64,000 nucleotides of DNA, taken from positions 864,001 through 928,000 of the forward strand of contig CM000432.1 in NCBI GenBank assembly GCA_000165345.1, given 5' to 3'. A program made the translations under genes and the position numbers. Below, piece after piece: positions 48,169 through 55,400 of this stretch. The notes under the pieces are model-generated. The model was not told the DNA's origin. It did no database searches and was given only the letters and a program-made list of their open reading frames with translations. Each line of letters begins with the position of its first letter. The first letter of the stretch is position 1.

Positions 48169-50109
48169 ATGAGATTGAGAAACTGGTGTATCCTTTCAAT
48201 CTTCATACTTCTGATTAAATCGTTAGATAATATATGTTTTGCTTCTAATGGAGAATTTAATTCGTTAACTATAGCTTCATATACGCAGCAAAATCAACAA
48301 AGAATAGCAACATTAGCAACTTATAAAAAGAAGATCAATGATTCCAATAAAAGGATATTTAAGCTAAAAAAAATCATTTGTAGAATATTACAAGTACAAC
48401 AGGAAAATAATCAAACGGGATTTAATTCAAACTCTAAAGCTACAAGAATTTCAGATAGACATCAAGATGCCATTGTTACTACTAGTGGAAGTAATAATAA
48501 AAGTAGTACTTCCGATAATGATGAACTTGAAAAGAAACTTTCTGAAGTTGTTGTATCTTTATTAGACGAACAGGCTAAATTCGCAAACTTGATATTGAAA
48601 AGAATAATAATATTTTGGAATCCAAGTTTAAACTTTGGAGTTGATATCTCATCTAAAGGAGCATTAGAACGAGGATTTCTTGATATGCTTGGTTTAGGAG
48701 ACAAGCAAATTTGGAGTGGATCTAATTATGGTGGTAAACTTATAAGAGCTACAGACTCTGAGAATAGAATACAAGAGTCTCTATCAAAATTGATTAGTCT
48801 TACTGAATTATATAGATATCTAATGGTACATAACTATCTTCATATTATTGGTTCCATTTATAGACATACAAAAAATTTTGAAAGAACTGTCAGATCAAGA
48901 CTTAGGTTATTTAAAAAAATGAGAGATAGGCTGGTAAGCACAAGAGATTCTTTAGCTTTGATATTAAATACAGATTTACCAGATGACGTTAATTTACCAC
49001 ACCCTATTTCTCCTCCTTGTTATCTTAATATGGGAGAGAATTGTAATGAAGAAATGTATAATCAAATCTTGAATGAAATAGCTTTTTTCAAAACAGTTCA
49101 AGATGAGAATAGAGAGCTTTCAACTAGAATTCGTGATGGATCATGTGGAAACCATGAAGTTACAGGATGTACATTCTGTGAAATCAAGAAAGCAAGGATA
49201 TCTTTGATTGAATGGGCATTTAATGATATTCAATCAGATTTAACTAGACTAGAAAGGGATTTGAAGCTTTGCCAGGAAACAATTAAACGGAATAATGGAA
49301 ATGATTTATCCATTTCCAAATTTAATAGAGGCGGAGGAGGTTTTGAACCAAACTTGGATTATAACATTTCTGATTCTTCAGAAACTATGCTCGGATATGG
49401 ATCTAGCGAGCTAAGCAATGATCAAAATGAAACCAATTCATATGGTAATTTTTCAAGTGAATTTGGAAATAATGCAAGGCCAACAGGAAACATGAATAGA
49501 AGATCACGAACTTGCTCAAGCACGGAGATTAAAAGATATAAAAGAAGATCCTTTCATCATAAAACGTCAAAAAAGACTTCGAAGCGTAGATATCTTAAAT
49601 CAAGGAGGACAAAGACAATTAGGAAATCTAAAGATTGCGATGCTGATCCTTTTTTAGCGGATAACAATAATGATGGTGTATCAAATGTAAGTAGTTCCCA
49701 CAAAAATCAAATTCATTCCACAGATTCTAAAAATAGTAGCTCACCTTCAGGTTTTAAGAGTGATTATAATAACAGAAGAAGATCTATATCAGGAGGAGGC
49801 AAACAAACAACCGAAAATAATGATCTGGGTATATCTTCCCCCTTTCTTAGTACCTCTGAAACTAGTAGTCATTCTTCAGATTGCGAATATGAGTCAGAAA
49901 CAGACGCATCCTCACCTTTTAATGGTGAAACAAATTCTATTACGAATACACCCGAGATTCATAGCTCTGTAAGTCCGAAAAGTACCGTATCACCGGAAAC
50001 CAAAAGGGGCTACTCTTCAGCTCCAAATGATTCCATCCAATCGCTTAAAACTGAAGTTCCACAATCTCTCTCCAACACACAAAACAATAAAAGAAAAAAT
50101 AGGAGGTAA
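48169..50109 (+). CDS. Hypothetical secreted protein (646 aa).
   Basis: ATG ORF with signal peptide MRLRNWCILSIFILLIKSLDNICFA. It has a Cys-containing central region (SCGNHEVTGCTFCEIKK) and a basic, Ser-rich C-terminus. Confidence 0.65.
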   Translation: MRLRNWCILSIFILLIKSLDNICFASNGEFNSLTIASYTQQNQQRIATLATYKKKINDSNKRIFKLKKIICRILQVQQENNQTGFNSNSKATRISDRHQDAIVTTSGSNNKSSTSDNDELEKKLSEVVVSLLDEQAKFANLILKRIIIFWNPSLNFGVDISSKGALERGFLDMLGLGDKQIWSGSNYGGKLIRATDSENRIQESLSKLISLTELYRYLMVHNYLHIIGSIYRHTKNFERTVRSRLRLFKKMRDRLVSTRDSLALILNTDLPDDVNLPHPISPPCYLNMGENCNEEMYNQILNEIAFFKTVQDENRELSTRIRDGSCGNHEVTGCTFCEIKKARISLIEWAFNDIQSDLTRLERDLKLCQETIKRNNGNDLSISKFNRGGGGFEPNLDYNISDSSETMLGYGSSELSNDQNETNSYGNFSSEFGNNARPTGNMNRRSRTCSSTEIKRYKRRSFHHKTSKKTSKRRYLKSRRTKTIRKSKDCDADPFLADNNNDGVSNVSSSHKNQIHSTDSKNSSSPSGFKSDYNNRRRSISGGGKQTTENNDLGISSPFLSTSETSSHSSDCEYESETDASSPFNGETNSITNTPEIHSSVSPKSTVSPETKRGYSSAPNDSIQSLKTEVPQSLSNTQNNKRKNRR

Positions 50110-50118
50110 AGACCGACT

Positions 50119-50152
50119 GCAACGGCGCCGGCGCCGGCCAAGCCCCGCCAAC
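50119..50152. promoter_or_regulatory. GC-rich palindromic island GCAACGGCGCCGGCGCCGGCCAAGCCCCGCCAAC, 10 bp downstream of the stop at 50109.
   Basis: It contains GGCGCCGGCGCC, the same 12-mer found inside the eIF3c CDS at 53753. Its function is unknown (terminator-proximal element or distal promoter element for the SPCS1 gene). Confidence 0.25.
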
Positions 50153-50361
50153 TCTCTATGCATTTTGTTTAGCAGAATTTTATGAGTGAGAAATCCGAAA
50201 GAAAATTGTAATGTATGGAAAAGAAATAACTTTATAAACATCTTGTTATTTGATAGCCCACATTTATTGTAAGGAATTATGATTATTCATGCTATTGGAG
50301 CTAATTGTTAGACTTTGAGAGTTAATACACGATGGTTGTGCAGAGCTACTTTGCAGATGTG

Positions 50362-50384
50362 TATATATATATATATATATATAT
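50362..50384. repeat. (TA)n microsatellite, about 11 units.
   Basis: Read directly in the sequence. Confidence 0.9.
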
Positions 50385-50951
50385 GTATATTTTACTTCTC
50401 ACTAGAGGATGTTATTTTTTGGTAAATATTGCGAAATATTGAAGATATTAAGATAATGCATAAGAAGAGATAAGAGAGGGATGCATTTTCTTTTTATTTT
50501 CTAATTTGAGAGAAAAAGTTACTTAAATTTATTTTAGAGCTATAGTGTAAGATGTTTTGTAGTATATACTTATGGCATCTTCATTTTATGTTTATGGTTA
50601 CACATGCTGGTATTAGTGGCGGATTAATTTGAAGTTTTCTTAGATTTTTTTTTCTTCCGAATTCAAATAATCACGAGCTCTAATTCTTTTGCTAAATTCC
50701 AGCTAAGTTAGAAAGATGTTTCAGAGGCGTATATAGGGAGAAAAAAGTACTGAATGTGGGGAGTTCATACTGGGGGTAACAAAAAGTTTGGAATGTTTTA
50801 TAATATGGGTCTTTCCCGAATTATATATATTTAGTAATTCACTATCTTTTTACTTAAATCTACAAGGTGGGTTCAGGCTTTGAGGGAGGTATGAATTTGG
50901 ATACTGCATAGAAGAAGTAATATTTTTTGTTTTAATTTTCTTCCCGATCTT

Positions 50952-51378
50952 TCACTCTTGCTTATCAGCTTCACGCTTTTTCTTTTTTTCCTCTCTATTT
51001 TCAGAAGGGAGCCAGTTAACTTTGTTTCTGCAATACATTGGCCAGGAAGGAACACAAACCTGAAATTAAGAATTAAAAATGCAAAATTATTAATTCCCGC
51101 GACTTACTAGAAGAGTGATAGCCAGACCTAATAAAGTTGTCAGTACCGTATAATAGAACTTTTGGTGGTAAAATCCAATAATAAACGACATAATCCCTGT
51201 TAATATAACCAGTCGTTCTTGAATCTTATATGCTAGATCTTGTCCGGAAAAATCCTAATTTTTCAGTAAATGTAAGTGTTTTTAAGTTAAAGTGATCAAT
51301 AATTATTTCTTTTTCTTTTAAACTTACGTGAATATTTTCCTCTAAACAATTTTTGATGTGTAGTATTGTTCCTAACAT
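50952..51378 (-). CDS. Signal peptidase complex subunit 1 (SPCS1/SPC12 homolog), 101 aa, three exons: complement(join(50952..51059,51108..51254,51328..51378)).
   Basis: Exon 1 encodes MLGTILHIKNCLEENIH and is followed by GTAAGT. A 73-nt intron ends in AAAAATTAG. Exon 2 encodes DFSGQDLAYKIQERLVILTGIMSFIIGFYHQKFYYTVLTTLLGLAITLL and is followed by GTAAGT. A 48-nt intron ends in TTAATTTCAG. Exon 3 encodes VCVPSWPMYCRNKVNWLPSENREEKKKKREADKQE. All junctions are phase 0. The protein aligns with human SPCS1: [29 protein letters not shown]...LTLPPWPIYRRHPLKWLP. The track ORF 50873..51055 is the wrong frame of exon 3. Confidence 0.7.
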
Positions 51379-51894
51379 TGTATTTCTTTTAATCTTTTAC
51401 TTTTCTTCAGTTTGTAATATTTGCAGATTTTCAAGAAATAGGTGATATATCTTGAATATATATAAATATATATTTTGTAGTTAGAATAAGTTAAGTTTGA
51501 GTGTACTGTGTGTGGGAAACTGTTTATTTAATTTCTATATTTGAAATTCTTAAGAAGAAAAAAAACTTTAATTTGCTCCTGTAAAAGTTGGTATTATTAT
51601 TTGTTATTTTAGACTCAAAAGAATTTTTCCTATTCGGTACCTTGAGCGTGTAAATTGTATTCTTAAATCTTGTGTTTATTGAAATGAGTGAAGTAATTAA
51701 AAAAAATACTCTCTAATTTTTAATTAATGAGGTATTTTTAATTCTCGCACAGTTTGATTTTTTTTCATTTAGGTTTTTTATTTTTTTTTTACATATTAGG
51801 GTACCTAGTTTAATCTGCCCCCTTAAAACTTGTATACCGGCGAAATTATAATTTAAAAAAAAATGCCGGTATTAAAAATTATAATTGGAAGAGA

Positions 51895-51910
51895 AAGCCC
51901 GCCCAAATGC
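51895..51910. promoter_or_regulatory. AAAGCCCGCCCAAATGC GC-box in the divergent promoter between SPCS1 (-) and eIF3c (+). Short CCGG-containing elements lie at 51834-51847 and 51863-51873.
   Basis: Read directly in the sequence. Confidence 0.35.
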
Positions 51911-52441
51911 CAATTAGGGACAAATAATAAAATTAATTAGAGACGGAAAGTAATAAATGAAATAAAATAATTAGTAAACGGTATTGACATTAATTGAGAT
52001 GCCGGTTGAATGAAGGAAAATTGAGAAAAATTGAAAAAACTTTATTTTCTCTTTTTTTTTTCTATATATATATAAGAAGAAAAACAACAAAGAAAACGCA
52101 GAATAAAGTAGAGCCCTATAAGTGGGAGGTTCTGTGAGAAGTTTGTTGGGTGGAAAAGATCAAGAAAATAAAGAATAAGGTACTACTATTTGAGAGGTTA
52201 GAATAAAGGTTATTGGATAATAATATCTGATTCTTTGGGTTTCAAAGTAATAACTGATTAACTGGATAATACTAGTAAGATTCAGTAGAGCTTATAAAAG
52301 AATCAAAGTTTGATAAGTATAATAATATAAGAGATCATATTATAGGATACCTAAAGATTAATTATTTGATATCCCATTTAAGATTGAATACAATTATTTA
52401 TAGAATAGGAAGATTTGTGTACATATTAGGAAAAAGTAATC

Positions 52442-55400
52442 ATGCAGGGTAAATTTTGGGCAGAAGGCTCAGAGTCTTCTTCAATGGACTCCTCCAATAG
52501 TGAAAGTGAGAGCTCGTCAGACTCCGAGATGGAGATGCAGGCAGCTCGTCGTCGTCAAAGAGAGATGAATAATTCTAGATGGGCAATTGATTCCGACTCT
52601 GATAGCAGTGAAGACGACCGTAGAGTTGTACGAGGAGCTAAAGAGAAATTTCATGATGAATTGAGGATGATTATTAGAAGGGTTAATAACCATGTGAAGG
52701 TGTCTGATTTCAGCTCTCTAAGTGATGAATACGATAAATTATTAAAGTGTATGCAAAAATCTCAAAATGCTATTAAGAATTATGGAATTCCAAAGTTTTT
52801 CATTTCAGTTTTAGTTGAACTGGAAGCATTTCTTGATGAGAAATTTAGAGACAAGGAGGCTATTAAGAAACTTTCAAAGGCAAAGGCTACAAGTTTCAAT
52901 ACTTTAAGGGCTAAATTTAGGAAGTCAGTAGAAGAATATCGTGATCAAATGGATGATTGCAAGAATAATCCTCTTGCCTATCAGGATGATAATTTAAGTG
53001 ACGATGATTCAGATTCTAACTCGTATTCAGATTCAGATTCTGATTCTGATTCAGATTCTGATTCATCTAGCTCATCATCAGGTTCAGACTCAAGATCAGT
53101 ATCAGGATCTGACTCAGATGGTAATGGTAGCGGCTCAGACGAATCGTCATCAGACTCTGATTCATCATCATCTTCTTCTTCTTCAGAATGGTCATCTTAT
53201 GAAGATGAATATGAAGATCGTCACGCATCTGCATTAGCTAAATGGGGAACCAGAACAAAGAGTGTGAAAAAGAAGGAAAGTGGAAAGAAAGCTAATCGTC
53301 AAAAACAAGTTAAGAAAGACTTGCAAGATACTACAGTAAGTGGAGGAGCTAATAATAATATTCCTTCAGGAGATCTTTTGTCATTTGAAGGTGAAGTAAC
53401 TGTAGATATGATTGTGGAAAAAGTTGGTGAAATTGTTGCAGCTAGAGGAAAGAAAGGAACTGATAGACAAGAGCAGATTCGTCTGTTGAAAAAGGCTGCA
53501 GAAATCTCCAGACCACTTTCACTCCAGGCCTATGCAGATGTTCTTACCCACTTAATATCAGCTCAATTTGACACAATTACTGGAGCTTTCCATTGTATAA
53601 CATCTGGAATATGGTCAGAAATATGTGATAACATTAACATTTTACTGGATCTAGTCCTACTCAATAACAAAGACAAGAGAGTGTACATTTCAGGCTTCCA
53701 AAGCTTTATTTCATCCAAAGATAAAAAGAAAAAGGCTTCAGGTGACAGTTCTGGCGCCGGCGCCAATTCTGGAATGGATGCACATGGAAATAGCTTGGAT
53801 GGTGAAAATGCTAATACTGATGAAAACTCTTCTTTAGGTGATATTGTAGATCTAAAGGAGCAAGACAAAAGTACTGTTACTTTCCTTGTTTCATTTATTG
53901 AGAGACTTGATGGAGAGTCTCTCAAGGCACTTCAACTTACTGACGTGCACTCAAGTGAATACAAAGATAGACTTGTTCAGTCACTCCATCTTTTGGCGCT
54001 CTTATGGAGATGCTATAAGATCTGTGAAGAAAGAGGCTATTATGATCTTGTTTCCAGTCTCTCAGTACACTTAATCAATCAACTTCATTTTAAAAATGAT
54101 TCCCTTGCTATAAAAGTTTGGGAATTTGTCAGACAAATACTTGAAAAAACAGTCAATTCATCCCTCAGTTCTGAGGAATTGAGCGCCAACTCTGACTCAT
54201 CCAATACTGATTGTGCAGGAAAAATCCCTGATATACCGGTACCTAAGAAATTTAAACCAAGTGAGCTTATTACGGAATTGGTGGGGAATGTTTACAAATA
54301 TGGGGATTCTAAGGACAAACTGAGGGTTTTGATTCAGCATGTTTATAATATGGCACTTCATGATAATTATAATGAGGCAGTGACTTTATTCCAATCTATA
54401 GGAGTATATGACATGGCATTAGGATCTGATGTAAATATTCAGATCCTCTATAACAGGTCTTTAGTTCAGCTTGGTCTTTCTGCATTTAGACTTGGACAGA
54501 TTTCTGAAGCCCAGCAACTTCTAAGTGAAATTTGTATGCCAAATAGAAATAGAGAGTTGCTTGCTCAGGGTATGAGTAATATGAAATCACAAGAAAGAAC
54601 ACCAGAACAAGAGCGGGCTGAGAAGAGAAGACTTTTACCATATCATATGCATCTTTCACTTGAAGTTATTGATTGTATTTATCTTATTTGCTCTATGCTA
54701 CTGGAAGTACCTTATTTGGCTTATCACAAATCTTTAATTATGCAAAATGAAGCATCAAATAGCCATATTAAGTTAAGACCTATTTCTAAACAGTTTAGGA
54801 GATTATTAGAACAATATGAGCGCCAAGCTATTACTGGTCCTCCTGAGAGTCTTAGGGATACAATCATTGCTGCTACAAGATCTCTTCAACTTGGTAAATG
54901 GAGAGAATGCAGAGACTACGTATTTTCTCTATCTATTTGGGACTATAATCAAGAAGATTTACAACAAACACAAGAAAGATTGGAATTAAATATCAAACAA
55001 GAAGCACTCAGAACATATTTATTTACTTATGGACACCTTTACAGCTCATACTCGGTTAATAATCTAATTGAGATGTTCCAACTTCCTAGAGAAAAGATTC
55101 ATTCACTTCTTTCTAAGATGATGCTCAAGAATGAATTACAAGCCTTATGGGATCAAACCGGAGAGTTTGTTTTATTAAATCATAAGCAAGCAAGTAAGAT
55201 TCAAAATGATTCTTTAATTGTTGCTGATAAGCTCTTACAATTTGTTGATTGTAACGAATCTATGATTTCTTCTAAAGGCAATGCAAGTGGAGGTAAAAAT
55301 CCTAATGTTATTAATAATAGAAACTCTGCAGGAGTAGGAAATCCCAATAATCAAGGAGGAATTGGCCCAGGCTCTGTACAAGGAGGCGGACCAAATAATA

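Follow-up and report, generated by a model that had tools for sequence, protein, structure and literature searches.

The question raised by this locus is whether a 2,332-bp interval of Cryptosporidium parvum chromosome 4 (50110–52441), left by the flanking open reading frames (ORFs) within the 64-kb window (the whole stretch of DNA analyzed), contains a protein-coding gene. An earlier, sequence-only reading had described the interval as free of any ORF longer than 60 codons and had proposed that splicing of two introns of 73 and 48 nt yields a 101-aa homologue of the signal peptidase complex subunit SPCS1/SPC12. The description of the interval was accurate: the longest ORF inside it, on the minus strand at 50873–51055, encodes 60 aa and is, as had been suggested, an out-of-frame read of exon 3, and a 74-aa ORF (50017–50241, minus strand) straddles the left border. 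The exon and intron coordinates, the intron lengths, and the protein length all proved exact when compared with the sequence and its translation (Table 1).

We propose that the C. parvum orthologue of SPC12/SPCS1 is, almost certainly, a three-exon minus-strand gene, with a 101-aa product that would require excision of both short GTAAGT...AG introns. The three exons, joined and translated, read MLGTILHIKNCLEENIHDFSGQDLAYKIQERLVILTGIMSFIIGFYHQKFYYTVLTTLLGLAITLLVCVPSWPMYCRNKVNWLPSENREEKKKKREADKQE. Left unspliced, the frame opened by the SPC12 ATG runs into a stop after 50 codons, and intron 2, a multiple of three in length, nonetheless contains three in-frame stops.

Table 1 Predicted features of the C. 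parvum SPC12/SPCS1 gene and its product (positions in the window).
Feature	Position	Strand	Basis or remark
Complete SPC12/SPCS1 coding region, ATG to TGA	50952..51378	-	427 bp in the genome; 306 nt after splicing; 101-aa product
Start codon (ATG) and stop codon (TGA) of the SPC12 gene	51378-51376 (ATG); 50954-50952 (TGA)	-	Sequence and translation
Exon 1, 51 nt, MLGTILHIKNCLEENIH	51328..51378	-	N-terminal extension, presumably cytosolic, ahead of the Pfam domain
Intron 1, 73 nt, GTAAGT...TTAG, phase 0	51255..51327	-	Position conserved
Exon 2, 147 nt, residues 18-66 (DFSGQDLAYK...)	51108..51254	-	TM1 and most of TM2
Intron 2, 48 nt, GTAAGT...TCAG, phase 0	51060..51107	-	TBLASTN gap coincides
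Exon 3, 108 nt, residues 67-101 and stop	50952..51059	-	End of TM2, PSWPMYCRNKVNWLP motif, lysine-rich tail
Predicted TM1, residues 32-46, LVILTGIMSFIIGFY	51168..51212	-	Hydropathy peak; aligns to TM1 of 7p2p_D
Predicted TM2, residues 53-69, TVLTTLLGLAITLLVCV, split by intron 2	51051..51149	-	Hydropathy peak 2.0; human TM2 alignment
Conserved membrane-proximal motif PSWPMYCRNKVNWLP, residues 70-84	51006..51050	-	Family consensus CVPxWPxYNRxPxxWLP

The identification as SPCS1/SPC12 held up in profile, structure, and nucleotide-level searches. The predicted protein matched the Pfam SPC12 family (PF06645) at 88.9 bits (E = 2.3e-25), relative to a curated gathering cutoff of 23.6 bits, and the match ran from residue 18 to residue 86, crossing the exon 2/3 junction and covering profile positions 2–70 of 71 (69/71). 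Human SPCS1, as resolved in chain D of the cryo-EM structure 7p2p of the signal peptidase complex (7p2p_D), aligned without gaps over residues 17–94 (E = 9.4e-13). The claim that the protein aligns with SPCS1 over its whole length therefore needs qualification: residues 17–94 do align with the human protein, whereas the Pfam domain covers residues 18–86 only. Searches in the reverse direction led back to SPCS1, with SPC12 the sole Pfam family above cutoff and SPCS1 chains the sole matches among solved structures in the PDB. When human SPCS1 was searched against the 64-kb window by TBLASTN, it gave a single significant match (51254–50976, minus strand, E = 6e-12), in which a 16-residue gap fell exactly on intron 2; all other matches in the window had E > 1.

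In an exhaustive HMMER scan of 1.84 billion representatives, the SPC12 protein had 535 relatives at E ≤ 1e-3. We built a 41-sequence alignment from the C. parvum protein, its counterpart in C. canis, and 39 of the top-ranking relatives from outside Cryptosporidium, which were 27–43% identical to the C. parvum protein; every aligned member (41/41) matched PF06645 and no other family, and a profile of this alignment retrieved only SPCS1 from the PDB (7p2p_D, E = 1.8e-32). The invariant residues of the family (D18, Q22, P70, and W72) and the near-invariant ones (G21, G44, P73, and W82) are all kept in C. parvum, and P70, W72, P73, and W82 exist solely in the spliced frame of exon 3. Judged by these comparisons, the SPC12 match is far beyond chance. 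The GQxLA motif cited in the sequence-only reading is present as GQDLA, and the PxWPxYxxxxxxWLP motif as PSWPMYCRNKVNWLP. The third motif cited, GFxYG in TM1, is absent as written: the C. parvum protein reads GFYHQ where human SPCS1 has GFIYGY, and within this stretch only G44 is near-invariant in the family, with F45 matching the consensus.

To place the gene model in a comparative setting, orthologous loci were collected from C. hominis, C. meleagridis, C. canis, C. xiaoi, the Logan isolate, and an ENA metagenomic contig, which together with C. parvum represent seven lineages. The lengths of exon 1 (51 nt) and exon 2 (147 nt) and the phase-0 intron positions were identical in all seven, and every one of the 13 introns recovered was GTAAGT..AG, with lengths ranging across lineages from 59 to 175 nt for intron 1 and from 48 to 416 nt for intron 2. 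The spliced frame was intact and complete in six lineages, in all of which the PSWP...WLP frame was conserved, and intact through exon 2 in the seventh, the ENA contig, which ends before exon 3. SPC12 lay between eIF3c and a gene of ~630–720 aa at all loci with enough flanking DNA to show it; the ENA contig, at 533 bp, has too little.

Substitutions in the spliced frame were concentrated at third codon positions. Exon differences by codon position (first/second/third) numbered 0/0/7 between C. parvum and C. hominis, corresponding to 0 nonsynonymous and 7 synonymous changes, 11/3/52 relative to C. canis, and 19/8/51 relative to C. xiaoi, and the third-position bias was seen in all three exons. 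The introns, which accumulate indels, were 59% and 58% identical to those of C. canis, compared with 73–76% for the exons. As read from these substitution patterns, the comparison shows the spliced SPC12 frame to be under purifying selection. The G+C content of the C. parvum SPC12 introns was 22%, versus 35% for the exons; genome-wide, Cryptosporidium introns have a G+C content of 22% and a mean length of 84–100 nt (Isaza et al., PMC4637869). With GT...AG borders, short length, low G+C, and fixed positions combined with free length, the SPC12 introns have the properties of Cryptosporidium spliceosomal (U2-type) introns. The proposed splicing of SPC12 rests on these comparative data and on the public annotations described below.

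Exon 1 needed separate support because the Pfam domain begins only at residue 18. The possibility that exon 1 is wrong, with another start or a non-coding first exon and a protein beginning near DFSGQ, draws on that domain boundary, on the many SPC12 homologues that start directly with MD(F/Y)KGQ (as in MDFKGQ...), and on the deposited C. xiaoi model, which places an ATG two codons before DFSGQ. In C. parvum, however, a stop codon in the frame of exon 2 stands directly before DFSGQ, at the end of intron 1, and exon 2 offers no in-frame Met before M39, within TM1, so that the coding sequence must begin in an exon further upstream. Enumeration of all ATG/GT/AG combinations within reach upstream of exon 2 returned one in-frame, stop-free solution, which was the exon 1 originally proposed; no other choice of exon 1 was both in frame and free of stops. 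This 17-codon exon is also kept in length and sequence across the seven lineages. Its peptide follows the approximate pattern M-x-x-x-[IL]-x-[HY]-[ILV]-K-[NK]-C-L-E-[ED]-N-[IV]-H across the genus, with the end ..CLE(E/D)N(I/V)H/GTAAGT common to all seven lineages, and differences inside exon 1 alone again favor third positions (3/2/9 for C. canis, 4/1/12 for C. xiaoi, and 5/1/12 for the ENA contig). In several remote homologues, the invariant Asp is preceded by comparable extensions (for example ...IECLSAGEMDY and ...FRCLKEGKMDY) with the pattern ..CL..G.MD. Given this evidence, we regard an error in exon 1 as very improbable. A minor possibility is that the 17-residue peptide (..IKNCLEENIH) serves a cytosolic, lineage-specific function within the signal peptidase complex.

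An older model of the same locus differs from the three-exon gene. The 2004 Iowa II annotation deposited a 111-aa "hypothetical protein, partial" (P0003; window 50873–51254, minus strand), which starts at DFSGQ and continues into the 50873–51055 ORF, an ORF that does exist on that strand. Enumeration of shifted joins showed that this model connects exon 2 to exon 3 over 46 nt, not 48 nt, and the 2-nt deficit in intron 2 shifts exon 3 into the wrong frame, that of the 60-aa ORF. The older model would need an intron of 46 nt with TC where the AG acceptor should be (or a pair of borders shifted to the same effect) in place of the canonical 48-nt GTAAGT..CAG intron, to which the PSWP...WLP frame of six lineages points; it has no start codon, loses the invariant P70 and W72 together with the WLP motif, and scores 44.8 bits over profile positions 2–51 of 71, versus 88.9 bits for the three-exon model. 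It has also been superseded in later annotations, and we see practically no chance that it is correct.

Unspliced read-throughs of the SPC12 gene have been called in other species and assemblies. They comprise C. xiaoi RS030_192905 (P0006, 95 aa; L009 2281–3164, JAWDEY010000010.1), a 90-aa call in the Logan assembly (L010 2472–2936), and an 86-aa call in the ENA contig (L011 74–396), and these models begin inside or upstream of intron 1 and end in intron 2. Resplicing raised the SPC12 score from 53.3 to 91.6 bits for C. xiaoi and from 45.6 to 88.2 bits for the Logan isolate, with the domain and the PSWP...WLP motif complete in both. The C. xiaoi entry RS030_192905 is still unspliced and truncated and could be corrected.

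That the locus is an unexpressed, decaying pseudogene or a chance similarity, as its shortness, its lack of a long ORF, and its AT-rich, intergenic-looking surroundings might suggest, is a negligible prospect and already effectively refuted by a spliced frame that is intact wherever assembled, the absence of nonsynonymous changes against C. hominis and the strong third-position bias against distant species, SPC12 matches with E-values of 1e-12 to 1e-25, and the conserved synteny with eIF3c and the 646-aa gene.

The three-exon gene is present in public records. The exact 101-aa protein is found in NCBI and UniRef for C. hominis and C. parvum (CUV05819.1 and PPS96374.1 from C. hominis, KAL5369059.1 from C. 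parvum, and KAL3128526.1) under the names "Microsomal signal peptidase subunit (SPC12)" or "Signal peptidase complex subunit 1". Deposited entries of C. tyzzeri (TRY52017.1) and C. meleagridis (POM83589.1) are near-identical, and these two and the C. canis protein (OJ253_2140) are 82–99% identical to the window protein. The annotated Cryptosporidium SPC12 genes have the same three-exon structure and the same synteny, between eIF3c and the gene for a putative 646-aa secreted protein, and show no substantive difference from the gene described here. Public assemblies carry a 427-bp gene call with a 101-aa product over the same span; one of them, CP029783.1, is identical to the window over 6,427 bp.

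The locus is most likely cgd4_3760/CHUDEA4_3760, as indicated by the tag CPHLJ_4g3760 and a matching dN/dS row. The supplement of Isaza et al. 2015 (PMC4637869) lists cgd4_3760/CHUDEA4_3760 with identity 1, dN 0, and dS 0.096, in agreement with the 7 synonymous and 0 nonsynonymous differences counted here. The 2015 re-annotation drew on cDNA libraries and RNA-seq, and its intron total was more than twice the earlier one (Isaza et al., PMC4637869); the IOWA-ATCC annotation claims, as a statement about the whole annotation, 100% RNA-seq support for its introns (PMC8744675). The exact SPC12 protein is contained in these annotations made with cDNA/RNA-seq (PMC4637869; PMC8744675). A literature search that extended to apicomplexan SPC12 and to signal peptidase and SEC11 in C. 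parvum found no paper on this gene, and the Cryptosporidium signal peptidase complex appeared only in passing mentions.

Because the exact gene model and protein are already publicly annotated, the gene is not a discovery: model and protein were already known, for an ordinary housekeeping gene. The observation of a three-exon SPC12 gene is confirmed and its reading as SPCS1 supported; the sole overstated part was the word "hidden", as the gene is annotated in present-day deposits, among them the assembly that is identical to the window. The model has been public in Cryptosporidium annotations since the 2015 re-annotation and, for a near-universal eukaryotic housekeeping subunit, carries little biological weight. 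The case does illustrate that a reader with nothing but the sequence can uncover a small gene of several exons that ORF tracks missed and that was mis-modelled in 2004.

The most likely function of the C. parvum protein, as suggested by homology, is that of an accessory subunit with two TM segments in the ER signal peptidase complex. Hydropathy analysis identified two hydrophobic segments (residues ~32–46 and ~53–69) separated by the six-residue loop HQKFYY, a profile that matches the human one. Consistent with the positive-inside rule, the C-terminal tail contains 9 K/R and the loop 1; the N-terminal segment, with 3 K/R and 5 D/E, has an excess of acidic residues. An AF2 model predicted helices at residues 22–46 and 50–80 with low confidence (pLDDT 56, pTM 0.29, from a three-sequence alignment). 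Because this model was too poor for a fold search, we relied on the alignment to the solved 7p2p_D chain, from which we infer a hairpin fold for C. parvum SPC12.

Human SPCS1/SPC12 (UniProt Q9Y6A9; chain D of 7p2p and 7p2q) has the short-looped two-TM hairpin that is predicted for the C. parvum protein, its short isoform is of similar size (~100 aa), and sequence identity over the aligned residues is roughly one third. The two proteins share the D-x-x-G-Q start of the domain and the membrane-proximal P-x-W-P...W-L-P motif. They differ immediately before the invariant Asp, where C. parvum has His and human SPCS1 has Met. A basic C-terminal tail is common to both, that of C. parvum being lysine/glutamate-rich. 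A further difference is that the C. parvum gene is interrupted twice, by very short introns, the second of which falls within TM2. The yeast homologue of SPC12, Spc1p, belongs to the same family (PF06645) and has the same predicted accessory role; yeast SPC1 is intronless and non-essential.

By analogy with the family and with 7p2p, C. parvum SPC12 would form a two-helix hairpin in the ER membrane with both termini in the cytosol. It would pack on the TM helix of SPC22/23, thereby lining one side of a lipid-filled "TM window", and SPC12 and SPC25 together would act as a cytosolic clamp that orients SEC11 and SPC22/23. As an accessory, non-catalytic subunit without contact to SEC11, it would probably be dispensable for catalysis. 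In the human complex, SPC12 forms a three-helix bundle with the SPC22/23 TM helix at the side of the lipid-filled TM window (Liaci et al., 7p2p), and on the cytosolic side it joins SPC25 in a clamp; SPC12 makes no contact with SEC11 (Liaci et al.). Human SPC12 is the subunit least important for catalysis, and SPC12, SPC22/23, and SPC25 are present in essentially all eukaryotes (Liaci et al.).

The start codons of SPC12 and the divergently transcribed eIF3c are separated by 1,063 bp, about twice the mean intergenic length in Cryptosporidium (~550–590 bp; Isaza et al., PMC4637869), and this spacer contains blocks conserved in five species. One block of ~75 nt (52103–52179, plus strand), located 5′ of the eIF3c ATG (52442), contains no ATG and always ends in AAG/GTA; it is kept in C. 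parvum, C. hominis, C. meleagridis, C. canis, and the Logan isolate. Its distance to the eIF3c ATG varies from 121 to 262 nt, and an acceptor-like TAG/G site lies ~10–13 nt before that ATG. As judged from the sequence comparison, 52103–52179 is probably a non-coding 5′UTR exon of eIF3c, and 52180–52429 would be its ~250-nt 5′UTR intron. Midway along this spacer, the elements TGCCGG (51864–51869), GCCCGCCCAAATGCCAATTAGGGACAAAT (51897–51925), and GAGACGGAA (~51940–51948) are conserved in five species and are probably promoter elements shared by SPC12 and eIF3c. The 51864–51948 region includes the motif GGCGGG, which is E2F-like.

It is unlikely that the 52103–52179 block and the promoter-like elements at 51864–51948 instead represent an unannotated conserved non-coding RNA, and a second small gene within the 2.3-kb interval was rejected, since the conserved block has no ATG and is better explained as eIF3c 5′UTR or promoter. 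We prefer the combination of an eIF3c 5′UTR exon and a shared promoter over a non-coding RNA. Rfam and tRNA scans of 50000–52500 returned nothing credible: a sub-threshold mir-297 match at 50352–50387 corresponds to a (TA)n repeat, and a MicC match (E = 0.89) was attributed to chance. Microsatellites of the (TA)n type occur at 50362–50386 and 52064–52076.

On the other side of SPC12, the neighboring ORF (48169–50109, plus strand) encodes a serine/asparagine-rich protein of 646 aa for which no Pfam match is recorded; one deposit calls it "putative signal peptide-containing protein". A G+C-rich stretch with tandem GGCGCC (50117–50150, CTGCAACGGCGCCGGCGCCGGCCAAGCCCCGCC) follows directly after its stop codon, in a genome of 30% G+C, and this downstream intergenic part is poorly conserved (0.37–0.44 in a six-species alignment). 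The row for cgd4_3750, listed just before cgd4_3760, gives a C. parvum–C. hominis dN/dS of 0.7, versus 0 for SPC12 (PMC4637869). We took this row to describe the 646-aa neighbor, which, if so, would be a fast-evolving secreted protein.
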